The position numbers were made by a program, and so were the translations under genes. Under the pieces are notes generated by a model. It made no database searches. It was given only the letters and a program-made list of their open reading frames with translations, and was not told where the DNA came from. A stretch of 64,000 nt of DNA from Cyanobacteria bacterium P01_A01_bin.123 (lineage in GTDB: Bacteria > Cyanobacteriota > Cyanobacteriia > Phormidesmidales > Phormidesmidaceae). Below, in pieces: positions 18,037 through 30,732 of this stretch (position 1 is the first letter of the stretch; each line of letters starts with the position of its first letter). The DNA lies in contig JBCBZT010000004.1 of the NCBI GenBank assembly GCA_039815185.1, positions 1 through 64,000 of the forward strand, in the 5' to 3' direction.

Positions 18037-19491
18037 ATGTCTCTGGACATCAACCTACTCAATTTAGGGTCAGATTCTGCCGAACGTGACATTACCGTCG
18101 GTCTATCAGAATATTTTTATCAAAATTCGACTTATCACAAGTTTTTCAACAGTGGCAAAACCATCCTGGTTGGTAATCGCGGTTCTGGCAAAAGCGCCAT
18201 CTTTAAGTACATGGCAGCTCTAGAAGCCCGAAAAGGCAATCTAGTAATCGAACTCTCCCCCGAAGAATACTCCTACGAACTGCTCTCGGAATATCTCCGT
18301 AGTGAGAAGGACGGCTCTTGGGGCAAGCAAAGTGCCTATTCAGTAGCTTGGCAATACTTGCTCTACAATTTAATCTTCAAAAAGATCGTAGATGAGAAGC
18401 GGGGGCTATTGCTAGGATCCCAAAAAGATATTTACACCTATGTCCGTAATCACTTGGAGAGTCAAGATCTTAACTCCATCGGCATTCTCTTTAGCTATTT
18501 GAAGCGGCTAGAGCAAATCAAACTCGATAGTCGTGAAAGTCTGCAAAAATCCCGAGAATTGCAGTCGCTCTATAGCTTAGAGGAAATCAAGGACTTGCTC
18601 ATCAGCCTCAAGAAAATTCTTAAAAAAATCCGAGTCAAAATCTTTATCGATGAACTTGATAAAGGCTGGGATAATTCAGAGGATGCTAAGTATTTTTTGG
18701 CAGGACTCTTTCAAGCAGCCCAAAAGTTAAATCTAATTAGTCAGAACCTTTGCATCTATATTTCTATCCGCCAGGAGCTATTTGATAATATTCCTCAAAT
18801 CTATGAAGATGCTCAGAAAATTCGAGAAGATGTTGAAGTGATTCGCTGGGGTAAAAATGAATTGCTCGAATTGATTGGTCTCCGCATCGCCCATTGTTTC
18901 CCAGAATTGCAAAAGCAGGGGGCGCTGAAACGATGGAACGCGATTTTTGCGGCCTACTTATCTGTAAAAGATGAAGCATCGGTAGATTATATTATCGATC
19001 GCACCCAATTTCGCCCCAGGGAACTGCTGCAATTTTGTAAGCTCTGCATTGAATTCTTCTCAAGGGGGAAGCGGATTGAAGAACCGACAATTTTTGCCGC
19101 AGAGGAGGTCTTCTCAGAGCAAAAAATTAAAGATCTAGCCTCAGAATATCGATTTAAGTATCCCTATCTTTTAGATTTGTTTGAGGTATTTAGGGGCCGC
19201 AAAAGCCACCTTGAGAAGCAGGAATTGGAATATCTTTTGTTGGCAACCGTATGTGGTGAACTTGACGTGGATCGGGCAGCAGATTGGGTGCTTGACATGG
19301 ACTATCTAGAGTTGAAGAAGCTACTTTGGCACATTGGATTTCTCAAGGCTAAAGTGCCGAGACAAACGGGGCAAGCTTCAACGCGGAATAGCTACTTTGG
19401 TCATTACGAGCTACCCACCATCAATCTAGAAAATGTTGAATATTTTTGTGTTCATCCAGCTTTTCGCTATTTCTTAAGCCTGAAAGCTTGA
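18037..19491 (+). CDS. P-loop ATPase (Sll1717-like family)
   Basis: Walker A GNRGSGKS, Walker B IFIDELD, DRTQFRPRELL, terminal VHPAF. Confidence 0.78.
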   Translation: MSLDINLLNLGSDSAERDITVGLSEYFYQNSTYHKFFNSGKTILVGNRGSGKSAIFKYMAALEARKGNLVIELSPEEYSYELLSEYLRSEKDGSWGKQSAYSVAWQYLLYNLIFKKIVDEKRGLLLGSQKDIYTYVRNHLESQDLNSIGILFSYLKRLEQIKLDSRESLQKSRELQSLYSLEEIKDLLISLKKILKKIRVKIFIDELDKGWDNSEDAKYFLAGLFQAAQKLNLISQNLCIYISIRQELFDNIPQIYEDAQKIREDVEVIRWGKNELLELIGLRIAHCFPELQKQGALKRWNAIFAAYLSVKDEASVDYIIDRTQFRPRELLQFCKLCIEFFSRGKRIEEPTIFAAEEVFSEQKIKDLASEYRFKYPYLLDLFEVFRGRKSHLEKQELEYLLLATVCGELDVDRAADWVLDMDYLELKKLLWHIGFLKAKVPRQTGQASTRNSYFGHYELPTINLENVEYFCVHPAFRYFLSLKA

Positions 19492-19543
19492 GCTGAGACC
19501 GACTGGGCTGATAAATTCTAATTTTCTCTTTAATCCAAGCGTT

Positions 19544-20389
19544 ATGGTCTGGCATCTCCCTAAAGTTACACGGCGATTGGAAAAAGTGGTTCAGCGGATT
19601 CCCACTTGGTTGGTGGTGCTGGTGTCGGTGGTTTGTCTGGCCGCGATCGCGCTTTGGGTGCAAGAAGACGTGATTGTGCGTGCCCCCCAAGATCTAATGC
19701 AGCGCGAGACGCTAAAAATCTTTTTTGACAATGCTGAATCCTTTGCCATTGTGGCAGCGGTAATTCTTTACTTTAAGGGCGCACCTGACCGCAAAGCCCA
19801 AAAGCATTACGAAGCCTGGCGCATCATTGACAATGCCGCTATGGCTAAAGTTTCTACCAGCTACGCTCGGTTTCAGGCCCTGCAAGATTTACATCGAGAT
19901 GGGGTGCCGCTGCGATCGCTAGAAGCGCCTGGTGCAAATTTGGTGAAGATAAATCTGCCAGAAGCCAACCTGAATGAGGCCAATCTTCAAGGGGCCGATC
20001 TACGGGAGGCTTGCCTACATCACAGTGACTTGAGTCGTGCAAACTTAAGGGGGACTAATCTCCAAACGACTAATTTGAAAGGGGCAAATCTGCGGGGGGT
20101 GAATCTCCAGCGAGCTAACTTAAGGGATACCAACCTGATCGGGGCCGATCTACGAGATGCCAATTTAAAGGGCGCTAATCTACGTGGCGCTGAACTTTGG
20201 AAAACCCAATTTCTGGGGGCAGATTTGACCGATGCTGATCTCAAATGGGCTGAGCTACAGGGGGTAGAACTCCATGGCGCAAAACTCCATCGAACCATTA
20301 TGCCCGACGGTCGAGTCGAACATCGAGCGATGGAATTTTGGAGTGATGGTTCTGCTGGGCCGATTTCTGACCGTCGAATTGAGTTGTGA
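19544..20389 (+). CDS. Membrane-anchored pentapeptide repeat protein
   Basis: Two hydrophobic segments followed by A(N/D)LxG repeats. Confidence 0.9.
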   Translation: MVWHLPKVTRRLEKVVQRIPTWLVVLVSVVCLAAIALWVQEDVIVRAPQDLMQRETLKIFFDNAESFAIVAAVILYFKGAPDRKAQKHYEAWRIIDNAAMAKVSTSYARFQALQDLHRDGVPLRSLEAPGANLVKINLPEANLNEANLQGADLREACLHHSDLSRANLRGTNLQTTNLKGANLRGVNLQRANLRDTNLIGADLRDANLKGANLRGAELWKTQFLGADLTDADLKWAELQGVELHGAKLHRTIMPDGRVEHRAMEFWSDGSAGPISDRRIEL

Positions 20390-22182: not shown

Positions 22183-22325
22183 TTAGGCTTACTTTCCCCG
22201 ATTTAGGCTTACTTTGTGCAACCTCAAACAATTACCCCCCCTCTTTCATATCCTAATCAGTTGTCAAACTGACTTAGTCACCCTCAAATTTTCTTGACAA
22301 CTTGACTACCTTTGTGAGTTGACAA
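22183..22325. promoter_or_regulatory. Direct and inverted repeats in the nfeD/NACHT divergent promoter
   Basis: TTAGGCTTACTTT at 22183 and 22203; GTTGTCAA 22260 / TTGACAAC 22294; TTGACAA again near 22319. Confidence 0.55.
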
Positions 22326-22384
22326 TCCCAATCTTTTCATTAAGTATAAATAAAGCATCAGGGTATCAGCTTCAGGACGCATCA

Positions 22385-24709
22385 ATGCAACTACTACCAA
22401 GGGATTTTCTGTCTAAAGTAGCCAGAGAGTATGAACTGACTGCACTTGAAGAAGAAGCTTTTGTCGCTCGATTCAATAGCGACATTACCGATCAAGTTCT
22501 AATTAAAAACCTTAATATTACACTCTCTGCTTTCCGCACCCGTATGAGTAACGTCTATCGAAAGCTGGGCTATTCAGGGGGTGGGCCTGGGAAACAGCAT
22601 CGAGTCTCATATTTTTTGATTGACAAACATCGCAAAGAGAACCCTTCAATCCCCGTCAAGATTAATGACGAGGACATTGACAAACTCGTGGAAGAAATCC
22701 ATGAAAAAATAAAACCAGGCATTCAACATATGTGTGGCTGGATGCGTGTCCTTGATATGAATCAACCGATTGAATTGGCAAATATCTATACTGATGTCAA
22801 CATCTTAGAGAAGGTTTCTAGAACCCAGAACTTAGAGATCTCAGATTTAATGCGAGAGTTTGATCCAGAATCAAAGGATTTTGATCGATTAGGTCTGAGC
22901 AGAAAAAGTGTAGAAAGGGTGTCTGGTATTGAGCTGGTTAAAAACTGCTCTAAACTCATGATTTTGGGCAAGCCTGGATCTGGCAAGACGACTTTTCTAA
23001 AACACATTGCTAACCAATGCAATAATCGTAAGCTTTTTTCTAACTTAGTTCCTGTATTTATATCCCTCAGGAATTTCTCTGATCCCGGCAATAGCTTTAG
23101 TTTGCTTGAATACCTGATTGCATGGTTTGAAAAATTTGGCATTCAAGATTTTGAGGTTGATTCCTTACTTCAGAAAAATCGAATTCTTTTGCTTCTAGAT
23201 GGTTTGGATGAAGTCAACGAAGAGCGCTTTAAGTATACTTTAAGGCAAGTTCGAGAATTTACAGACAAGAATTTTGAAAATCACTTCATAATCACGTGTC
23301 GATTGGGTGCTCAAGACTATGTTTTTGAAAAATTTACAGAGGTAGAAATTTCTGATTTTAATGATGAACAGATATCTTCGTTTGTTCATAATTGGTTTGG
23401 CTATAAAGGAGTTGCTGAAAAAGCAGACAGATTTTTGGACAAAATCCAAAAAAATACCCCGATCAAAGATCTGGCTAGCAATCCATTGCTACTCACGCTC
23501 TTATGTTTAGTCTTTGAGGATAGAACGGACTTCCCTTTGAATCGGGCCGAAATTTATGAGCAAGGTTTAAGCACACTGCTGCGAAAATGGGACGCTAGTC
23601 GCGACATTGAAAGGGATTGGGTTTACAAAGAACTCTCTGCCCATCGAAAAGAAGATTTGTTGAGTCAAATAGCCATTCGTTCATTTGGCAAAAGCGAATA
23701 TTTTTTTAAGGAGAAAGTGCTAGAAAACTATATCGCGGACTATATCATTAACTTGCCAAACGGGCGAAACAAAAGGTTCGTCCGCGAATCTGATCTCAAT
23801 AGTAAAGGGGTCTTAAAGGCGATTGAATATCAACATGGTTTATTTGTGGAGAGAGCCAGGGGAATTTATTCCTTTTCTCATCTGACCTTTCAAGAGTATT
23901 TTACGGCAAGGGCAATTATTGCAGACGGCGGTTCCGAAAGATTTGACGAGCTGGTCAACGAAATCTTTCATAAACGTTGGCGTGAAGTATTTCTGTTGGC
24001 TGTCAGTATGGCTCAAAATGCAGATAAGATTTTCTCTTTGATGAAGCAGAAGATTGATGCTCACCTGTCGATAGATCAATATGTTCAGGGCTTTTTAGAG
24101 TGGGTTGAGCAAAAGTCTGCTACTGTAAAGTCGCCACCACCAGCACATCTCGTTAGAGTTTTTTATTTTACCCATGGTTCTAGTGGACATAGCCCACCTG
24201 TTATCCAGGAAGGTTTGAATTTTGATCTGGACTATGATGAGAATTTGATTTTGATACTGACATTGGCTGACTTGATATCTCAAAATTTTGACCAAGTTGA
24301 CTCTTTCTCGCTGTTTAAAAAGCGTGATCAAGTCCGGACAAAAATCATGGGATGTTTTCAAAGCTTGAAAAATGTATTGGATCGATCAATTGACTCATCA
24401 CCCAATGCGGCGCTCAAAGCAAAACTGCAAGATCTCGCGAGTGATCTTCCTTATGCAAAAGATCTACAAGATTGGTGGTATCGAGATTCTAAAATCTGGA
24501 TAGAAGAATTAAGGTCTGCGTTGGTTGAGTATCGAAATATTGGTCATGACTGGCATTTTACAGATGCGCAGATTTCAGCACTCCAGAAATACTATGATGC
24601 CAATAAAACACTAATGGATTGTCTCAATAGCGATTGTTATGTCAGTCGTAGCCTACGGAAACGGATTCAGAATACTCTATTTTTACCTGTCGCCAAAAGT
24701 CCCCATTGA
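22385..24709 (+). CDS. HTH-NACHT NTPase with cyanobacterial C-terminal helical domain
   Basis: N-terminal RTRMSNVYRKLG HTH; GKPGSGKTT; LLLDGLDEV; NPLLL; FSHLTFQEYF; C-terminal YYDANK.LMDCLNS. Confidence 0.9.
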   Translation: MQLLPRDFLSKVAREYELTALEEEAFVARFNSDITDQVLIKNLNITLSAFRTRMSNVYRKLGYSGGGPGKQHRVSYFLIDKHRKENPSIPVKINDEDIDKLVEEIHEKIKPGIQHMCGWMRVLDMNQPIELANIYTDVNILEKVSRTQNLEISDLMREFDPESKDFDRLGLSRKSVERVSGIELVKNCSKLMILGKPGSGKTTFLKHIANQCNNRKLFSNLVPVFISLRNFSDPGNSFSLLEYLIAWFEKFGIQDFEVDSLLQKNRILLLLDGLDEVNEERFKYTLRQVREFTDKNFENHFIITCRLGAQDYVFEKFTEVEISDFNDEQISSFVHNWFGYKGVAEKADRFLDKIQKNTPIKDLASNPLLLTLLCLVFEDRTDFPLNRAEIYEQGLSTLLRKWDASRDIERDWVYKELSAHRKEDLLSQIAIRSFGKSEYFFKEKVLENYIADYIINLPNGRNKRFVRESDLNSKGVLKAIEYQHGLFVERARGIYSFSHLTFQEYFTARAIIADGGSERFDELVNEIFHKRWREVFLLAVSMAQNADKIFSLMKQKIDAHLSIDQYVQGFLEWVEQKSATVKSPPPAHLVRVFYFTHGSSGHSPPVIQEGLNFDLDYDENLILILTLADLISQNFDQVDSFSLFKKRDQVRTKIMGCFQSLKNVLDRSIDSSPNAALKAKLQDLASDLPYAKDLQDWWYRDSKIWIEELRSALVEYRNIGHDWHFTDAQISALQKYYDANKTLMDCLNSDCYVSRSLRKRIQNTLFLPVAKSPH

Positions 24710-24941: not shown

Positions 24942-27167
24942 ATGGTTTCTCCTGATGACCTTGGTGAAATTGTCGAGCGGATTGCCCAGGGCAGAGAAAC
25001 TGGTGGCGATCGCGACCTGTTGCAGCAATTGCTACAGGGAACACAAGGACAAAACGTGGTGCAGCTGGGCAAGTTCACAGTCAACTTGGGTCAGGGGCGA
25101 GATATTCATGTGGGCGATCGCATTTATCAAGGTACCGATGCAGACACGATTAAAGCTGCCTTGCAAGCCTTGCTCCAGGCGCAGTCTACGCCTAAAACAA
25201 CCCTAACCCCCCAGGAATACCGAAATCGGCAAGCGTTGCTCAGTAAGGTTAAAAACTTCTGGGTCAAGGGGGTACTGGAAACGTCGTTGCATCATCAGGT
25301 GGTGATGCAACTGGGCCTGGAAGATCGATCAAACGGGGTAGCGGCTCCCTGGAATTTGGGGTTGGCCGCGGTGGAACAGACTCAAACCGCACTGCCTGAA
25401 AAGACCCGTGTAATTGACCTATTTGATCAACTGGGAATCGGACGAACACTGCTGATTTTGGGTGAACCAGGGGCGGGTAAAACCATCACGCTACTGCAAG
25501 TGGCCCGCGAGTTAGTGGCCCGAGCTGAGCAAGACGTGGCTCGCCTGATTCCGGTGGTGTTTAATCTATCCACTTGGCGCAGCCAACTCAGCATTGCCGA
25601 CTGGCTAGTGGCAGAGCTGAACACGAAATATCAGGTGCCCAAGGCGATCGCCCAACCGTGGGTACAACAGCAACAGCTTCTACTCCTCCTAGATGGTTTG
25701 GATGAAGTGCGGGCTGACTACCGGGAGGCCTGTGTGATTGCGCTGAATCAGTTTCAGCAAACCCACGGTACAGAGATGGTGGTGTGCAGCCGCATCAAAG
25801 ACTATGAGGCGCTGTCACAACGGTTGGCGCTGCAACAGGCGGTCTATGTGCGATCGCTGCAACCCGCCCAAATCGATCAGTATCTAAGCGATCTGAATGG
25901 CGATCTGGCTGGCCTTAGGCAACTGCTGGAGGCAGACGGGGCTTTGCAAGACCTGGCGCGATCGCCCCTAATGCTGAACATTATGGTGTTGGCCTATGAG
26001 GGGATTTCTCCTGAGGATTTGCCGCAAATGGGGGTGGAGGCCCATCGGCAGCGGGTCTTCAATACCTACATTGACCGCATGCTCAGGCGACGGGGAGCAA
26101 ATCAACGCTACTCACCCGAACAAACGGTGCGCTGGTTGAGCTGGTTGGCTCAGCAGTTGGTGGCTTCTTCTCAAACGATTTTTCTGATTGAGTGGCTCGA
26201 TCGGGGTTGGTTGCAAATGGCTTGGCAACGCTGGCTATACATTGCTTTGAGTTCACTGATTGTGGGGCTAGCGTTTGGGTTAGTTATTGCTCTCAGTGTG
26301 GGATTTGGCCCGAACTGGCGCTTGATTGGCCTAATGGTTTGGGGGCTCTACACTCTGCCGAATATGCTGATGGCATGGATTACGCTGCGGATTGAACAAA
26401 TGCAACCCAGTCCAAGGCAGGGGTTTTTGCAACGGTTAATCGGTAGTCTCTGGACGGCATTACTGGGAGGGGAACTTTTTGGCATCGTTGCGGGTATTGC
26501 CAGAACGCCCCAAGTAGGTTGGTCTGTTGCCCTATGGACTGTTTTGGTGGTGGGGATTTTGGACTGGCAACTGGGTGGCATTGTGGGCTTGAGTTTTCTC
26601 AAACCGATAGAAGCCTTGAGATGGTCTTGGAAGAGCGTTAGACAATATTTGATCATGGGCTTAATTGGCTCTGCACCCTTGGGTTGGCTATTGGGTGGTG
26701 CTGGCGTTCTGGGCCAGAGCAGGATAGAGGGCATGCTCTTTGCCATGTTTGGAGGAGCTGTTTTTGGTCTGTTAACCGGGCTTCGGGCCGGGACTGAGAT
26801 TGAAACCCGCACAACCCCGAATCAGGGAATCTGGCGATCTGCAAAAACATCAGCGATAGTCGCACTCACGGTCTCAACGAGCTTTGCACTGGTGATTCAT
26901 TTGTTGGATCAGTGGTTACTGATTTCGCCAGATTGGGGGGTATTTTATGGGCTATTTATTGGACTGTTGATGGGGGGGCCTGCTTGCATTGTCCATTTTA
27001 GTGTGCGGACGGTGTTTTATCTGGGCAATGCGATTCCGTGGAACTATGCGCGGTTTTTAGATTATGGGGTGGATCGGATCTTTTTGCAGAAGGTGGGTGG
27101 GGGCTATATTTTCATCCATCGTTCGCTGATGGAACATTTTGCGGGGATGGCGAAGTGGCCCCATTAG
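24942..27167 (+). CDS. NACHT NTPase with N-terminal EAD10-like segment and C-terminal multi-TM region
   Basis: GEPGAGKT; LLLDGLDEV; SPLML; several TM helices; FLQKVGGGYIFIHRSLMEHF. Confidence 0.9.
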   Translation: MVSPDDLGEIVERIAQGRETGGDRDLLQQLLQGTQGQNVVQLGKFTVNLGQGRDIHVGDRIYQGTDADTIKAALQALLQAQSTPKTTLTPQEYRNRQALLSKVKNFWVKGVLETSLHHQVVMQLGLEDRSNGVAAPWNLGLAAVEQTQTALPEKTRVIDLFDQLGIGRTLLILGEPGAGKTITLLQVARELVARAEQDVARLIPVVFNLSTWRSQLSIADWLVAELNTKYQVPKAIAQPWVQQQQLLLLLDGLDEVRADYREACVIALNQFQQTHGTEMVVCSRIKDYEALSQRLALQQAVYVRSLQPAQIDQYLSDLNGDLAGLRQLLEADGALQDLARSPLMLNIMVLAYEGISPEDLPQMGVEAHRQRVFNTYIDRMLRRRGANQRYSPEQTVRWLSWLAQQLVASSQTIFLIEWLDRGWLQMAWQRWLYIALSSLIVGLAFGLVIALSVGFGPNWRLIGLMVWGLYTLPNMLMAWITLRIEQMQPSPRQGFLQRLIGSLWTALLGGELFGIVAGIARTPQVGWSVALWTVLVVGILDWQLGGIVGLSFLKPIEALRWSWKSVRQYLIMGLIGSAPLGWLLGGAGVLGQSRIEGMLFAMFGGAVFGLLTGLRAGTEIETRTTPNQGIWRSAKTSAIVALTVSTSFALVIHLLDQWLLISPDWGVFYGLFIGLLMGGPACIVHFSVRTVFYLGNAIPWNYARFLDYGVDRIFLQKVGGGYIFIHRSLMEHFAGMAKWPH

Positions 27168-27347
27168 GACGTCGCAAAGCAAATCTAGCAGGATATCCCA
27201 GTCTTTACATGTTGCCCCAGAGGAACGCGATCGCATTAAAATAGTTCATGCGAACTAATCAAAAGTGCTCAAGTCGAGTATTCTGTCCGGAGGCTATGTT
27301 GGTGCATCGAAGAGTGATGAGTTGATTCATGAAACAGCCGCCCCATC

Positions 27348-27515
27348 ATGGGACCATTCGACCAACTTCAAGAAGATTTCGATAAACAACGGGAGCGGGG
27401 GTGCGAACCATCACCCAAGGCTGAGAAGTTTGTCGAAGACTACAGCGATCGTGTTGAAGCTGAAAAACAAGCGCTGAAAGACCGTCAGGCGCAAGAGCGT
27501 CGAGAACGACAATAG
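27348..27515 (+). CDS. 55-aa micro-protein (paralogue 1)
   Basis: Manual translation MGPFDQLQEDFDKQRERGCEPSPKAEKFVEDYSDRVEAEKQALKDRQAQERRERQ; aligns without gaps to the next ORF. Confidence 0.7.
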   Translation: MGPFDQLQEDFDKQRERGCEPSPKAEKFVEDYSDRVEAEKQALKDRQAQERRERQ

Positions 27516-27602
27516 GGCGTGACGGAAATCTCACAAAAATGTTCCGGGTAGGGGAATTCACTTAGGTAAACGTTAGCGTCGTTCAAAAGATGAATGATTG
27601 CT

Positions 27603-27791
27603 ATGTCACCTTACGATCAAGTGGATCGAGATATCCAAAGTTTGATACGTCAAGGGTGCACTCAGAAAGAAGCTTTTCAGAAATTGAAAGCTAGCTATTC
27701 CGATAAGAGCAAAGAAGGAGCTGAAAAACTTAAACGCCTTCAAGAACTTGAAAGAAAATTGAGGGAACAAGGCCAGAAGCGGAAAAAATAA
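27603..27791 (+). CDS. 62-aa micro-protein (paralogue 2)
   Basis: MSPYDQVDRDIQSLIRQGCTQKEAFQKLKASYSDK...; 17/55 identities to paralogue 1. Confidence 0.7.
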   Translation: MSPYDQVDRDIQSLIRQGCTQKEAFQKLKASYSDKSKEGAEKLKRLQELERKLREQGQKRKK

Positions 27792-27798
27792 CCTCACT

Positions 27799-28803
27799 TT
27801 AGTGAGAGTCTATGAATGGCAAGCGTTCAATCAAATAGTCAAGGCATGTTTCAATAGCATCAACAGTCTCGCTGCCAAGTCGTAGCGGGATGCTTTTTTT
27901 GATTGCTAAGAATGCAGCTTCGTATTGCTCAATATCCAATTCAAAGGGAATATCAGGCGAGTCTAGAATGTCATAGGTTCCCCAGTAGAGGCAAAAGCTA
28001 ATCTGCTCTAAAAACTGTTTTAGTGAGAATTGGAAATCATCAATCTTTTGTACTGACAAATCGAGATCTGGAAACTGTTTAAGAGCTTGCTTGCAGGCGT
28101 ATTTCCTCAACGAGTTTATGCTTGTGTCAATCCAGGCCGCGCCAGGGCGACTAGCTTCCAGGCGATTGATAAACTTCTCCAAGTTTTGATTCTCTACCTT
28201 GCGGCACTCAAGTGCCTCTGGGGACAGCTGGGCGCGGGCATCTTCTATGAATGCTTCGCCATCAATCTGCAAGTCCTTTAGCTGCTGACGCATGTCATCA
28301 ATAGCTGATTGAATCAGGCGATCGCCTTGAACAACAATCTCCTGAAGTTCCCGATTTAAATTGTGAAAGGTGTGAAGCTGCTGTTTGAGATGGTTTAGTT
28401 CTTGCTGCTGAGTCTCGGAAAAACAGCCAGCGTTGAAGATTTCCTCGATGATATCCAATCTGGCATTGATCGTTTCTAGAGTGGTTGGATCTAAAGCAAT
28501 CCTGGTAAGCGGTAAATTGTCGGAACTGGTAACACTATTGCTATCAGCTGTTAAATGGGTATGTGGTCCTTGAAGTTTGGTAAGTTCTTGGACAATGGCA
28601 CGAATTTCCTTAATAGACGCACCGTTGTGGCGATCGCCAATATGAACATTAGTCCCTTTACCAACAGAAACATTAAACTTGCCAGGCTGCGAAGCATCTT
28701 GACTTGCGCTTTGCTTTAGCAGTCGGCTAAGTAATTGAATTTCGTTGTCGGTGAGTGTCCCAGCACGGAGACGCTCGATGATGTCACCCTGATCTTCAGG
28801 CAT
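27799..28803 (-). CDS. EAD10-like N-terminal segment + coiled-coil/helical domain of unknown function
   Basis: From ATG28803: DIIERLRAGTLTDNEIQLLSRLL...GKFNVSVGKGTNVHIGD, homologous to the NACHT N-terminus at 24942. Confidence 0.75.
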   Translation of the reverse strand: MPEDQGDIIERLRAGTLTDNEIQLLSRLLKQSASQDASQPGKFNVSVGKGTNVHIGDRHNGASIKEIRAIVQELTKLQGPHTHLTADSNSVTSSDNLPLTRIALDPTTLETINARLDIIEEIFNAGCFSETQQQELNHLKQQLHTFHNLNRELQEIVVQGDRLIQSAIDDMRQQLKDLQIDGEAFIEDARAQLSPEALECRKVENQNLEKFINRLEASRPGAAWIDTSINSLRKYACKQALKQFPDLDLSVQKIDDFQFSLKQFLEQISFCLYWGTYDILDSPDIPFELDIEQYEAAFLAIKKSIPLRLGSETVDAIETCLDYLIERLPFIDSH

Positions 28804-29045
28804 TGCAGATACGGGTATCAGAACCTGAGAGTTGACACGAGCATAACCCAGGTACTCGCCCAAAGCCCACTTCATCGAGACGTGGGACAATAATTTGCAA
28901 ACTTTCCGCCGGATTCTGGCGTTCAAACCCTTAGAAGCTGCCTATTTCTCCGGTCATGGATTTGGAGCATAGAATGAAAGTAACTGCCTGGGTTTGCGTA
29001 ACTTCTCCTCTGACGCTCAAGTACTCTCTTCTTCCTCTGCTCCCA

Positions 29046-29618
29046 ATGGTTCAGCTCAAACAGCGGTTTCAAAGCTTTGAAGAGTACCTGTCTTACGACG
29101 ACGGGACAGATAACATCTACGAGCTTTTCAACGGAGAATTGATTGCAGTGCCGCCTGAATCTGGTTTCAACGTTGAGATTGCCAACTGCCTATTTGCAAC
29201 CTTATTGCCCATCGTGGGCTACCGCCGTATCAGAGGGCATGGCCTAGAACTGGAAGTACGCGGTGAACCGAGGAATCGTTTTCCAGACTTAACCGTGATC
29301 CGAGAGGAACATGTTGAACTTTTGAAGCAGCGCAATACTATTCGATTGTCGATGAGGCCGCCTGTATTGGTGATTGAAGTAGTGAGTCCAGGGGAATTAC
29401 AGCGTAACCGCGATTATGTCGCCAAGCGAACGCAGTATCAGGATCTAGGCGTGCCGGAATATTGGATTATTGATCCGCAAGCGAAGACAATTTTGACGCT
29501 AGTGTTGGTCGATGGTGTGTACACCGAATTTGAGACTTTTAGCGGAGATGCAGCCATCCGCTCTGCTCAGTTGGGATTGCTGAATGCAACTGCTGCTGAA
29601 GTTTTTGCAGGCACATAA
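29046..29618 (+). CDS. Uma2-family endonuclease
   Basis: RFPDL; LVIEVVSPG; KRTQYQDLGVPEYWIIDP. Confidence 0.92.
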   Translation: MVQLKQRFQSFEEYLSYDDGTDNIYELFNGELIAVPPESGFNVEIANCLFATLLPIVGYRRIRGHGLELEVRGEPRNRFPDLTVIREEHVELLKQRNTIRLSMRPPVLVIEVVSPGELQRNRDYVAKRTQYQDLGVPEYWIIDPQAKTILTLVLVDGVYTEFETFSGDAAIRSAQLGLLNATAAEVFAGT

Positions 29619-29643
29619 CTGGCCAATTGACGGCTGTTGAAAG

Positions 29644-30732
29644 CTAATCATCATCTTGATCAGTGTTATACGTGTCGCCAATTTTCAAATTTTGAGCATT
29701 GCCAATGCTAATACTGTACTTTCCTTGCTGATTAACATTCTGGACAACATTGTCATTCCCAAAAATATTGCCATCCCCTGTGTTAATCGTTGCACCCTGG
29801 GCATTTTGAGCTGCAACTGCGCGATCGCCCGTTTGAGTCACTGAATTATCAATAGTAATCTGAACTTGGGATTGGGATTGCGCTTTGACTTCCCCCCAAC
29901 CCCCTTTAGGCAGTCCCTTACCGCCTTGTAACAACGCGATCGCGAATCGTTCTGTATCCGCCATTTCAAATCGGGGATTTTGCTCATGCCCCATCGCCGC
30001 CGCACTCTCAGGCACCGCTTTCCCCAAGTGATTCGCCAGATCAAACACCGTAACTTCAGTAGCACCCGATTGACTCGAAGCCCCCTGCAACGCCTCAATC
30101 AAATGGTGGGTGTAAATGCTCAAGGTCTTGTCATCCCGCACCCAAGAACTTTGCTTCCCCCGGCAAGAGGTAAACACCACGCGCCCCTCACCCTGGCTCA
30201 ACGCCTCAATCAACCCCTTCGGATCCGCTGTGGGAATTACCCCCTTGGGTCGTCGCGGTTCTACGATTTCCCCTTTAGCCGACGCCATTCCCGCCGCATG
30301 GCAACAATCTAAAATCACCAGCAGTCGTTTAGCCGAAATTTGGCGTAGAGCTTCGTTAAAAGCATCGGCTGATAAAGCCGTATCACGCCAGTCATAGGCA
30401 TCAAAATCATGGGGAATCAGGTAGTAGCGATCGCTGTCCGGCTCCAACCACCCATGCCCCGAGTAGTAAACAATTGCAGTAGCCTGCGGATCAGACTTGA
30501 CCTGAGTCCTCAACCAAGTCAATCCCTCCAAAATCCCTTGCTGGGTTGCCTCTTGATCGTGGAGCAAACGCAAATGCTGGTCATTATCCGGATAGGCGCA
30601 AAGGTCAGAATTAACCAAAATTTGTCGTAGCGCCCGCATATCGCTAACGGTGACAGGCAGCGAAAAATTGCTTTCGACACACTGTCCAACACCAATTAAG
30701 AGGGCATATCCATGGGCAAACGTTTGAGTCAT
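29644..30732 (-). CDS. Caspase-like (peptidase C14) protease with Q/N/G-rich C-terminal tail
   Basis: YALLIGV; YYSGHG (His); ILDCCHA (Cys). Confidence 0.9.
   Translation of the reverse strand: MTQTFAHGYALLIGVGQCVESNFSLPVTVSDMRALRQILVNSDLCAYPDNDQHLRLLHDQEATQQGILEGLTWLRTQVKSDPQATAIVYYSGHGWLEPDSDRYYLIPHDFDAYDWRDTALSADAFNEALRQISAKRLLVILDCCHAAGMASAKGEIVEPRRPKGVIPTADPKGLIEALSQGEGRVVFTSCRGKQSSWVRDDKTLSIYTHHLIEALQGASSQSGATEVTVFDLANHLGKAVPESAAAMGHEQNPRFEMADTERFAIALLQGGKGLPKGGWGEVKAQSQSQVQITIDNSVTQTGDRAVAAQNAQGATINTGDGNIFGNDNVVQNVNQQGKYSISIGNAQNLKIGDTYNTDQDDD

Follow-up and report, generated by a model that had tools for sequence, protein, structure and literature searches.

A candidate EAD10-coupled module of a membrane NACHT protein, a phycobiliprotein-like protein and a caspase-like protease in a cyanobacterium

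Related systems

The closest described systems are those of the EAD families. In the available text of Kaur 2020 (PMC7159879) and Kaur 2021 (PMC8195603), one EAD copy is found on a core NTPase and others on effector or signalling proteins encoded by adjacent genes; the copies are terminal, caspase-fold effectors occur, and the systems are enriched in multicellular cyanobacteria. These features are shared with the present case. In the same text of Kaur 2020, EAD10 is a small alpha+beta domain for which homotypic adaptor contacts are suggested, on the model of Death-like domains, and it belongs to a group of EADs said to 'primarily recruit other effectors'. The coupling is a prediction, and no EAD10 experiment was found in the available text of the two papers. 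Compared with these systems, the caspase described here has only the beta core, which lies on a predicted disordered tail and scores below the Pfam cut-off. Moreover, a second motif (R1) stands ahead of the core and can substitute for it on receptors, and the present locus has no vWA-MoxR/VMAP core.

The BASS1-10 motifs (Dyrka et al. 2020, bioRxiv 10.1101/2020.01.06.895854) show the same arrangement, with the motif at the N-terminus of an NLR and at the C-terminus of an effector encoded by a neighbouring gene, and the same composition, rich in Q, N, G, V and I and poor in P and L. CHAT and TIR2 are alternative effectors in that study. The effector-side BASS3 also shares the 17-residue frame GK[YF]..(I/V)(Q/H)(I/V)GD; however, its second half (xNTQxNxF) is absent from the present core. 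The effector here is a C14 caspase and not a Bell domain. Another relevant group is the bNACHT antiphage proteins, for which the available part of the Supplementary Discussion of Kibby et al. (bioRxiv 10.1101/2022.07.19.500537) lists an N-terminal 'adaptor' class, including EADs, and a C-terminal 'TM regions' class. The present NACHT protein likewise combines NACHT with an N-terminal adaptor and the C-terminal TM sensor class; whereas the EAD10-NACHT-TM combination was not found in that part among the proteins tested, and phage defence is a candidate function here.

The shared motif and its distribution in the genome

The window is a stretch of 64,000 nucleotides from Cyanobacteria bacterium P01_A01_bin.123, and its relevant features are listed in Table 1. 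The original prediction was that a membrane NACHT protein, a caspase-like protease and a third ORF share one short motif. All three peptides are present as quoted in the window translations (aa 37-64 in the NACHT protein), and they align with one another without gaps. Pfam EAD10 (PF19954, "effector-associated domain 10") was found on all three proteins and was above its cut-off of 24.1 bits on two of them; the caspase tail scored 17.3 bits and matched profile positions 37-64 only, and its core (R2) reached 40.5 bits on a purpose-built core HMM. As judged by these profiles, the motif corresponds to the EAD10 beta core.

Table 1. Positions of the genes, domains and motifs in the window.
Feature	Position	Strand	Description
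Second NACHT protein	22319..24709	+	796 aa; Pfam NACHT 64.4 bits, NCH2 107.6 bits
EAD10-NACHT-multi-TM protein	24942..27167	+	741 aa; EAD10 88.8 bits, NACHT 48.5 bits (Pfam)
EAD10 domain of NACHT protein	24942..25169	+	Helix, beta core, helix; GK..GD core 25068-25118
NACHT NTPase module	25443..25892	+	aa 168-317, Pfam
Hydrophobic Gly-rich multi-TM region (predicted)	26241..26993	+	aa 434-684; Kyte-Doolittle scan
Third ORF	27799..28803	-	EAD10, long helices, predicted phycobiliprotein-fold domain
Phycobiliprotein-like domain	27820..28185	-	PF00502 family matches, PDB profile, AF2, Foldseek
EAD10 domain of third ORF	28585..28800	-	Pfam 57.8 bits; GK..GD core 28633-28683
Uma2-family (restriction-endonuclease-like) gene	28956..29618	+	Pfam Uma2 99 bits; between third ORF and caspase
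Caspase-like protease (Peptidase_C14)	29644..30732	-	362 aa; Pfam 68.2 bits; predicted disordered C-terminal tail
R2, EAD10 core on caspase tail	29662..29742	-	aa 331-357; GK..GD 29674-29724
R1 motif, caspase tail	29773..29829	-	..GDRAVAAQNAQGATINTGD..; BASS9-like by eye
C14 catalytic domain	29962..30711	-	aa 8-257, Pfam

The motif pattern and two looser versions were run against all six reading frames of the 8.09 Mb genome (16.2 million residues), and each matched exactly five places. Three of these are in the window, within at most 4.7 kb, and the other two are in adjoining genes at a second NACHT locus on contig C76; each locus has one NACHT gene. Profile and pattern searches together gave only these five EAD10/motif copies. 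The clustering is far above chance and the linkage to NACHT genes is tight, rather than the motif being scattered over the genome. In the GK..GD stretch, the caspase tail core shares 5/17 residues with the NACHT core and 8/17 with the third ORF; the NACHT core has more in common with the C76 copies (12/17), so cross-talk or a lack of specificity is possible. The best same-locus identity of the tail core is 0.42, which is equalled by 25% of other-locus cores, and by this measure foreign cores are as near to the tail core as those of its partners.

The NACHT membrane protein and the neighbouring genes

The NACHT protein has Walker A (GEPGAGKT) and Walker B (LLLLDGLDE) motifs, as read from the translation, and the Kyte-Doolittle scan gave at least five hydrophobic 19-residue segments in its multi-TM region. 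The TM half has 989 relatives at E<=0.001, and the same architecture is found in L008, L014, L022, L023 and L026. The protein is predicted to be a membrane-embedded STAND sensor, so the earlier view of it was reasonable, and the multi-TM region is presumed to be the sensor part. The NACHT gene is on the forward strand, and the third ORF and the caspase gene are on the reverse strand with the oppositely oriented Uma2 gene between them; the three motif genes are therefore not one operon. The position of the Uma2 gene is retained in two other genomes (L182 and L185). The second NACHT protein gave no family match over aa 1-140 and bears no EAD10, and the GC content over 22-24 kb is 0.397. Its homologue in G419 bears an EAD10 N-terminus, and it is probably a separate sensor of the same island.

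The caspase and its tail

The caspase matched the PADLOC caspase model (E 5.3e-20). The His (SGHG, His93) and Cys (DCCH, Cys144) that the protease was said to retain are both invariant across 95 aligned homologues. In the AF2 model built on this 95-sequence alignment, averaging pLDDT over 10-residue blocks gives 84-98 for most of aa 1-270 and lower values of 56-75 in blocks 141-180. The mean falls to 61 in aa 271-290; further on, values stay under 50 in aa 289-337 and aa 352-362, and are about 50 on average in the stretch between them (aa 338-351), despite the depth of the alignment. The tail composition is Q 13.5%, N 14.9%, G 10.8%, P 0% and L 1.4%. The tail is conserved, Q/N/G-rich and, according to the model, intrinsically disordered.

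The R1 motif looks like BASS9 when class C09 peptides are compared by eye, the BASS9 label being an assumption, and its regexes gave a single match in the six-frame genome, the caspase tail. An arrangement of R1 and R2 as HET-s-like pseudo-repeats found no support in hhalign (0.5%). Among the best 120 caspase homologues, R1 is kept in 55, and R1 and/or R2 in 82, in many cases with TIR, CHAT or other modules behind them; more than 25 residues lie beyond R2 in 42 of 58 homologues. These further domains suggest that R1-R2 is a family feature and more than a docking tail. It might even be a caspase-intrinsic segment for self-association or autoinhibition, possibly a self-cleavage site, in which case its likeness to EAD10 would reflect shared ancestry in defence islands. 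For example, tail cores across genomes have an identity of 0.45, about equal to their likeness to the neighbours' cores, and in 8 of 14 tail cores the position two before the G of IGD is Arg or Lys, orthocaspases being known to prefer basic residues.

The third ORF

The likely start of the third ORF is the ATG at 28801-28803, giving a protein of 334 aa. Profile searches and predicted structure comparison showed a phycobiliprotein fold in its C-terminal half. PF00502 matched 13/13 family members at E<=0.1 (best 2.1e-7), with the window copy at 15.4 bits, under the cut-off of 22.2; the family profile also matched phycocyanin alpha in the PDB (E 0.016), where a Phe aligns with the chromophore Cys84. 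The AF2 pLDDT of the domain is 85-96, and among the Foldseek matches listed, ranks 1-50 consist of phycobiliprotein-type chains throughout (target-normalised TM 0.56-0.69).

In relatives, the phycobiliprotein-like domain is C-terminal to TIR, CHAT, NB-ARC (with the APAF-1 helical domain) and TIR-FGS modules, as in the fusions TIR-helices-PBP, CHAT-PBP, EAD10-NB-ARC-PBP and TIR-FGS-PBP. STAND proteins have their sensor at this position, and the third ORF is therefore read as a second sensor, that is, a putative NTPase-less sensor-adaptor; Pfam domain and profile searches found no NTPase or other switch in it. Third-ORF homologues also occur directly downstream of TIR proteins of about 200 aa that bear an R1-R2 tail, so the effector of that pair would be TIR. 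The protein had been proposed as a second effector or adaptor; a second effector is not the preferred reading here. Nevertheless, it might be an effector or targeting subunit without any sensing, in which the recruited domain poisons phycobilisomes or directs the caspase to them. The missing chromophore Cys, as in a possible dominant-negative subunit, the lack of a switch, and the class of recruiting EADs in which EAD10 is placed in the available text of Kaur 2020 would all fit; but the position of the domain, always C-terminal to effector/NTPase modules, and the pairing with TIR effectors speak against it, and we consider it unlikely. The text of Kaur 2020 (PMC7159879) has no mention of a phycobiliprotein-like partner domain, and a search of the available papers gave none joining 'phycobili' with 'effector-associated'.

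Recurrence in other cyanobacteria

In a survey of 401 genomes of the cyanobacterial phylum, 20 had EAD10 above the Pfam cut-off, and 63 of the 73 matches over the cut-off have another within 10 kb. In the fetched islands, full EAD10 is N-terminal on 42 proteins, with NACHT, NB-ARC, TPR, WD40, VMAP, CHAT, FGS and GUN4; a core-only copy is at the extreme C-terminus of ten proteins, eight of which are C14 or CHAT peptidases. The expected co-occurrence of N-terminal NACHT and C-terminal C14 copies was seen in G302, G292 and G260, where a tailed C14 or CHAT adjoins EAD10-NACHT-TM. The module is repeated in G558 (L182), with ORF3, Uma2 and caspase whole and the NACHT-TM gene cut by the contig start. 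The pairing of NTPase N-terminus and effector C-terminus thus recurs in other cyanobacteria, and the layout in adjacent genes on which the original prediction was based follows published EAD/BASS logic.

In G419, 5 nt separate the caspase from a NACHT-TM homologue downstream of it; the EAD10 of this homologue (Pfam 44.4 bits) is of the R1 type in its core, matching the caspase R1. R1 also replaces the EAD10 core in the third-ORF homologues P0132 and P0133, and P0127 has both. Both receptor families therefore carry R1 instead of the EAD10 core in some relatives; receptors alternate between R1-type and R2-type cores, whereas caspases keep both. This switching, the restriction of the genome's copies to NACHT loci, and the fusions of NACHT-TM to CHAT, C14, TIR or kinase make a purely caspase-intrinsic role of R1-R2 very improbable.

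Likeness to amyloid signalling motifs

The BASS motif sets were taken from PMC8086366, supplement 1. The EAD10 core aligned in register with BASS3, an amyloid motif similar to RHIM, in hhalign at 95.0% probability (best of 100 column shuffles 4.9%), and its upstream half alone scored 11.1 (maximum 7.0 in 200 shuffles). However, the BASS3 HMMs placed none of the five cores in the genome's top 15, and Pfam RHIM detected 0/5.

On the receptor side, the motif lies between helices that are conserved in 41 aligned EAD10 copies, unlike the bare N-terminal BASS motifs. These helices and the failed HMM detection might indicate a small folded alpha+beta adaptor, similar to Death domains and to the description in the available text of Kaur 2020, with stoichiometric contacts and a tail bound by beta-strand addition instead of templating. 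The effectors, however, bear only the core of about 27 residues without helices; the AF2 pLDDT is <55 on the third-ORF EAD10 and <50 over most of the caspase tail; and the tail composition is as reported for BASS motifs, with which the core aligns in register. We regard the folded adaptor as possible but rather doubtful. Amyloid-like assembly of EAD10 and the caspase is a suggestion to which we give slightly less than an even chance.

Proposed mechanism

The locus probably encodes an EAD10-coupled conflict (immunity/cell-death) module comprising two receptors and a single executioner. A signal would be sensed at the membrane by NACHT-TM, or at the light-harvesting apparatus by the phycobiliprotein-like domain. 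Oligomerisation of the receptors would cluster their N-terminal EAD10 cores, which may recruit, or act as a template for, the corresponding core of the caspase tail; concentrated in this way, the caspase domains would be activated by proximity. We infer the binding, the signalling direction and the sensed signal of this module. The same logic is seen in fungal HET-s/NWD2, the RIPK1/RIPK3 RHIM necrosome and ASC/caspase-1, where NLR oligomers seed the polymerisation of a motif or domain carried by a downstream cell-death executor, which in the inflammasome is a proximity-activated caspase; the parallel is one of logic and not of demonstrated homology. The module adds a new case to a class of systems that is already described but as yet only predicted. 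Its particular traits are an unusual putative sensor that is like a light-harvesting protein, and the likeness of its motif to amyloid signalling motifs already described.

The shared motif in the genome

The three peptides that the original prediction had placed in neighbouring proteins occur letter for letter in the translations of the NACHT protein, the third open reading frame (third ORF) and the caspase-like protein, and they align without gaps. The six-frame translation of the whole genome (8,086,883 bases; 16.2 million residues) was searched with four patterns: the predicted one, one for the core, and two looser ones. All four returned exactly five places, three in the window and two in adjacent genes on another contig (C76); the motif is therefore real, and neither chance nor low complexity. 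It is also not scattered genome-wide, as the predicted pattern is confined to two loci with one NACHT gene each.

The shared motif is the centre of the Pfam domain EAD10 (PF19954, 77 positions; gathering score 24.1 bits), and a genome-wide scan with the Pfam model recovered the same five places. Residues 1-76 of the NACHT protein scored 88.8 bits and the third ORF 57.8 bits (profile positions 4-76), both above the cut-off; the caspase tail scored 17.3 bits, under the cut-off, over profile positions 37-64 only. The EAD10 profile matched nothing significant among the PDB sequences (best E-value 0.17). The C76 locus contains a 282-aa EAD10 protein directly upstream of a 1175-aa EAD10-NACHT-HEAT protein, and their two cores are identical at 16 of 17 positions. 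Similar proteins of about 280 aa precede EAD10-NACHT genes in three other fetched regions (L022, L193 and L194). For the 282-aa protein, the ESM Atlas gave a weak lead only, to DUF8052 (0.90).

Gene organization of the locus

The features are collected in the table below. The module genes in the window form three transcription units and no operon. The database copy of the third ORF (P0121) has the same 334-aa length as the protein from the probable start. No Pfam family was found by the Pfam scan for the 65-aa ORF, nor for the 140-aa N-terminus of the upstream NACHT-NCH2 protein. In the G419 genome, the N-terminus of the homologue of this upstream protein is EAD10; in G406 (region L194), split copies of the homologue adjoin a split caspase. 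The flanks of the 22.3-30.7 kb block carry housekeeping-type genes (RF3, a dehydrogenase, a carotenoid oxygenase, an ABC transporter, HisRS and others), and the block of about 8.4 kb looks like a small island. Further upstream lies the gene of a 484-aa protein that weakly matches an ORC/CDC6-like P-loop, and after it that of a pentapeptide-repeat protein; these two may be another STAND-like pair.

The Uma2-family gene, which is restriction-endonuclease-like, adjoins the 5' end of the third-ORF-family gene in opposite orientation in three genomes from different genera, namely this one, G558 and G567. Uma2 is also better conserved than the third ORF (phmmer E 4e-98 in G567, vs 8e-48).

Features of the locus and of related sites
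Feature	Position	Strand	Remark
484-aa P-loop protein, then pentapeptide-repeat protein	18037-20386	+	window
Upstream NACHT-NCH2 protein	22319-24709	+	low GC, 0.397
NACHT protein, 741 aa	24942-27167	+	translation
65-aa Lys/Glu-rich ORF	27594-27791	+	between NACHT gene and third ORF
Third ORF, open frame	27799-28926	-	probable start ATG 28801-28803, giving 334 aa
Uma2-family gene	28956-29618	+	window
Caspase-like protein, 362 aa	29644-30732	-	
Uma2 gene of G558	L182:3817-4389		
Uma2 gene of G567	L185:8665-9249		
Second EAD10/NACHT locus (C76)	L006:7963-12354		
Best RHIM match in the genome	G000:C35:125889-125924	-	L027, outside the window; non-significant

The NACHT protein

The 741-aa protein has a NACHT module (Pfam, 48.5 bits) with Walker A and Walker B, and its C-terminal half contains at least five strongly hydrophobic segments by hydropathy. 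These sequence features fit a predicted NACHT STAND NTPase of the TM-sensor class of bNACHT. Among 8,000 candidates scored, 989 relatives of the TM half were found at E<=0.001, and their N-terminal modules vary: EAD10, CHAT, protein kinase, TIR, C14, trypsin, cyclase and EAD1. In Kibby et al. (bioRxiv 2022), EADs are counted with the 'adaptors' that bacterial NACHT proteins can have at the N-terminus, and 'TM regions' with the sensor classes at the C-terminus.

The caspase-like protein and its tail

The 362-aa protein belongs to Peptidase_C14 (Pfam 68.2 bits; PADLOC caspase model, E 5.3e-20), with 1,531 relatives at E<=1e-5. The His and Cys that had been read as its catalytic residues are kept, His93 and Cys144 being invariant in 95 aligned homologues. 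The caspase-like fold with a catalytic His-Cys dyad fits a predicted protease. In the AF2 model, built from the 95-sequence alignment, most 10-residue blocks of residues 1-270 have a mean pLDDT of 84-98, and blocks 141-180 dip to 56-75. In the tail, residues 289-337 and 352-362 are below 50, and the residues between them average about 50. The tail is composed of Q 13.5%, N 14.9%, G 10.8% (Q+N+G 39%), K 2.7%, L 1.4% and P 0%.

Two motifs are carried by the tails of this family: the EAD10 core (R2), and a second motif (R1) about 20 residues upstream of it with the consensus ..ASGERSVAIGGxVSGSTIITGD.. Our core HMM detected R2 in 58 of the 120 best caspase homologues (i-E<0.01), always closely preceded by the catalytic domain and, after it, the conserved linker LLQGGKGLPxGGW. 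Both motifs were present in 31 of the 120, R1 only in 24, R2 only in 27, and neither in 38. The stretch after R2 has at most 25 residues in 16 proteins; in another 27 it has 26-120, and in the remaining 15 over 120. In the longer forms it contains, among others, TIR or CHAT modules or a Cys/His-rich element of about 50 residues. This element (..YVCPEPDCDISWVRRSVGQxIPQCSIHHV..) lies at about residues 360-420 in many homologues (P0002-P0062); it looks like a zinc ribbon and matches no Pfam family. Three regular expressions found no other R1 in this genome.

By eye, R1 and R2 share xNAQx..I..GD, which raised the idea of HET-s-style pseudo-repeats. Sixty R1 segments were compared by hhalign with the EAD10 core alignment (probability 0.5%) and with the BASS3 peptides described below (2.5%). 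Column-shuffle controls reached 8.8%, and the repeat idea was dropped. As a separate observation, Arg or Lys occupies one position in 8 of 14 effector-tail cores (x[RK]IGD), where the receptor-side cores mostly have His (IHIGD). Orthocaspases cleave with basic specificity, and x[RK]IGD could be a cleavage site for such an enzyme.

The phycobiliprotein-like domain of the third ORF

The C-terminal domain of the third ORF has 13 relatives at E<=0.001 in a set of 5.8 billion proteins. All 13 match the Phycobilisome family (PF00502) at E<=0.1 (best 2.1e-7), and the window copy scores 15.4 bits, under the cut-off of 22.2. The family profile matched phycocyanin alpha in the PDB with E 0.016. In the AF2 model, residues ~200-330 have a pLDDT of 85-96 and the EAD10 part is below 55. 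Every Foldseek PDB match listed (ranks 1-50) is a chain of the phycobiliprotein type, at a probability of 1.00 and a target-normalised TM of 0.56-0.69. In the HMMER alignment, the bilin-binding Cys84 ('KC') of phycocyanin alpha corresponds to Phe. The domain has the globin-like phycobiliprotein fold, and is no bona fide antenna protein.

An order-level scan found third-ORF matches at E<=1e-5 in 21 of 173 genomes, some of them to the EAD10 part only. In four genomes (regions L168, L183, L184 and L187) the homologue is just downstream of a TIR_2 protein of about 200 aa with a terminal R1-R2 tail, the Pfam assignment being checked on L183. In G567 (L185) the gene order is caspase-R1-R2-TIR, EAD10-GUN4, Uma2 and the third-ORF homologue. 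The phycobiliprotein-like domain (PBP) is also the C-terminal end of TIR-helices-PBP (L188, L191), ParA-like-EAD10-PBP (L186), EAD10-NB-ARC-APAF1-helical-PBP (L192), CHAT-PBP (L195) and TIR-FGS-PBP (L197) proteins.

The third ORF had been predicted to be a second effector or adaptor. An effector is the less likely reading, as the PBP sits at the sensor position of STAND proteins in the relatives. Because of this position, we read the third ORF as rather probably a sensor-adaptor. Sensors with GUN4 have already been proposed in the literature, and by analogy it might be speculated that the third ORF guards phycobilisome integrity.

Recurrence and cassette swapping across cyanobacteria

EAD10 exceeds the Pfam cut-off in 20 of 401 genomes sampled across the phylum, this one included, and 63 of the 73 matches over the cut-off have another within 10 kb. 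A 28-column core HMM was built from 27 regular-expression hits and run on 20 fetched regions, the C76 locus and the window, which gave 60 motif ORFs (i-E<0.05). Pfam was run on 57 of them, and the three window proteins were scanned separately. The first class (42/60) has a full N-terminal EAD10 domain, fused to NACHT (with HEAT, NCC-H, NCH2 or TM regions), NB-ARC, TPR, WD40, VMAP, CHAT, FGS, GUN4 or regions without an assigned domain. In the second class (10/60), the core stands alone and at the very C-terminus; these are six C14 and two CHAT peptidases, and two proteins without a Pfam domain. The remaining eight are fragments, partial or internal copies, for example C14-core-DUF900 and CHAT-core-VMAP.

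The predicted pairing of N-terminal copies on NACHT proteins with C-terminal copies on C14 proteins recurs in other cyanobacteria. For example, an EAD10-NACHT-TM gene adjoins a tailed C14 or CHAT gene in G302 (L014), G292 (L023) and G260 (L008). The 6.1-kb contig L182 of G558 repeats the module with complete third ORF, Uma2 and caspase genes, and begins within the NACHT-TM gene, which is therefore truncated. In the complete genome of G419 (L190), 5 nt separate a 348-aa caspase that has both R1 and R2 from the 765-aa NACHT-TM homologue downstream of it. The N-terminus of the latter scores 44.4 bits with Pfam EAD10, yet its centre is of the R1 type and closely matches the R1 of the neighbouring caspase. 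Within the third-ORF family, R1 replaces the core in P0132 and P0133, and both motifs occur in P0127. Thus either cassette can stand between the same helices of the receptors, and the caspases keep both. Among the comparisons, this speaks most strongly for a partner-matching role of the two tail motifs.

The specificity of pairing was compared from the core identities. Of the 17 residues in the GK..GD frame, the window tail core has 5 in common with the NACHT core and 8 with the third ORF. The NACHT core agrees with the C76 copies at 12 of the 17, and is nearer to them than to its own neighbours. Over 26 columns, the mean identity of tail and receptor cores is 0.45 within the same locus (31 pairs) vs 0.39 for other loci (653 pairs). 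Receptor cores share 0.61 within a locus vs 0.51 between loci. All these comparisons are between related genomes, which are not independent of each other. The best same-locus identity of the window tail core is 0.42, which is matched equally by 25% of foreign cores. These identities, together with the separate transcription units, would count against pairing specificity at this locus.

Relationship to the EAD and BASS systems

In the available text of Kaur et al. 2020 (PMC7159879), EADs are described as small non-enzymatic domains, with one copy on the core component and others on effector or signalling proteins, often in an adjacent gene; homotypic coupling was proposed by analogy with Death-like domains. 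The main text names EAD10 twice, as an alpha+beta domain and among the effector-recruiting EADs, and the word 'amyloid' is absent from it. Kaur et al. 2021 (PMC8195603) used EAD10 to find a TPR-GreA/B-C-PIN system, and the available parts draw no link to amyloid or RHIM. Among the papers searched, none contains 'effector-associated domain' together with 'RHIM'. The present locus has the EAD layout: adjacent genes encode the core NTPase with one copy and the effector or signalling proteins with the others, and every copy is terminal. The caspase tail is under the Pfam cut-off. In view of the two Kaur papers and Kibby et al., the basic reading is already catalogued, though only as a prediction.

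Bacterial amyloid signalling sequences (BASS) are the other related group. According to the available parts of Dyrka et al. 2020 (bioRxiv), BASS1-10 were found by pairing Bell-domain C-termini with NLR N-termini, with CHAT and TIR2 as alternative effectors; fibrils and prion behaviour were reported for BASS1 and BASS3, the latter a RHIM-like family. The motifs were described as rich in Q/N/G/V/I and poor in P/K/L. The locus shares with BASS in general a motif of about 25 residues on the NLR N-terminus and on the C-terminus of an effector encoded nearby, and the tail composition fits the Dyrka criteria. The BASS receptor motif is a bare N-terminus, whereas here the receptor core lies between two conserved helices of the 77-position domain. 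The disorder of the caspase tail in the AF2 monomer model is the sole indirect pointer to fibril or prion behaviour.

The class C03 peptides in supplement 1 of PMC8086366 (GK[YF]xVx..G[VI]Q[VI]GDxNTQxNxF) have the same 17-residue GK..GD frame as the EAD10 core; we take class C03 to be BASS3 and class C09 to be BASS9, which is an assumption. Pfam RHIM (PF12721) matched none of the five cores in this genome at E<=10. It was useless for collecting BASS3 examples, because it exceeded the cut-off in only 1 of 401 genomes of the phylum. Its best match in this genome (15.2 bits, E 0.25) is in a 351-aa open frame. A degenerate DNA pattern that encodes G[VI]Q[VI]GDxNTQ was instead run over the collection of genome contigs, so that the region upstream of the pattern is unselected. 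From the 80 fetched of 121 stretches returned, 87 peptides were obtained, 55 ending a short ORF (effector side) and 32 otherwise. Saccharothrix sp. ALI-22-I and Nocardia fusca, with which Dyrka et al. worked, are among the organisms represented.

In the 55 effector-side peptides, G[KR][YF] stands exactly at D-16 in 26 and x[KR][YF] in 37, and V or I is at D-12 in 92%. Alignment of 57 EAD10 cores with these peptides by hhalign gave a probability of 95.0% (score 30.0) in register, against maxima of 4.9% and 11.9 in 100 column-shuffled controls. The unselected upstream columns alone also aligned in register (score 11.1, 42.8%; maxima of 200 shuffles 7.0 and 3.6%). An HMM of the EAD10 N-half was weakly enriched on the BASS3 upstream halves (at least 5 bits in 9% of 55, vs 0.25% of 2,750 shuffles). 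When BASS3 HMMs (55- and 30-peptide builds) were run on all 148,791 six-frame segments of this genome, no EAD10 core was in the top 15 (best 11.6 bits). The NTQxNxF half is missing from the 57 cores; at position -3, 37 of them have His and 8 have Gln. The likeness of the EAD10 core to BASS3 is in register and covers the first half of BASS3, yet the core is no BASS3 member. As the motif is short, the likeness may also have arisen by convergence. R1 reads like the class C09 peptides, one of which runs on into ..QQGKYNIQI.., which is the order R1 then core; both comparisons were made by eye only.

Significance of the module

The finding is real, and the core of the original prediction, coupling of a NACHT protein to a caspase-like protein through a shared short motif, is probably right; the locus is a new example of a catalogued, predicted kind of system. 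Binding, the direction of signalling, amyloid formation and the biological role are inferences. As a mere catalogue entry the locus would be ordinary. Four features go beyond the papers examined: the disordered C-termini of caspase, CHAT and TIR proteins carry tails with the core alone, the cassettes R1 and R2 are swapped, the likeness to BASS3 is in register, and a putative sensor has a phycobiliprotein fold.

It is conceivable, though we consider it rather doubtful, that EAD10 is a helix-capped signalling cassette of the RHIM/BASS3 amyloid type, with the BASS9-like R1 as an interchangeable second cassette. If so, the 'effector-associated domains' of the Aravind laboratory and the 'bacterial amyloid signalling sequences' of Saupe and Dyrka would partly be one mechanism. 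Cyanobacteria would then activate caspases or TIRs through RHIM-like templating, and one receptor would be a chromophore-less phycobiliprotein decoy that guards the light-harvesting antenna against attack, e.g. by phage. The NLR systems coupled by EADs and those coupled by BASS have both been predicted to be forerunners, in bacteria, of inflammasome- and necrosome-type signalling, and their literatures are separate. With three genes and short peptides, the locus is a compact test case for whether an EAD acts on a caspase by amyloid-like templating or otherwise. The phycobiliprotein-fold domain may serve as an immune sensor for the photosynthetic antenna, beside those with GUN4; this role, if confirmed, would tie the control of cell death in cyanobacteria to the light-harvesting state.
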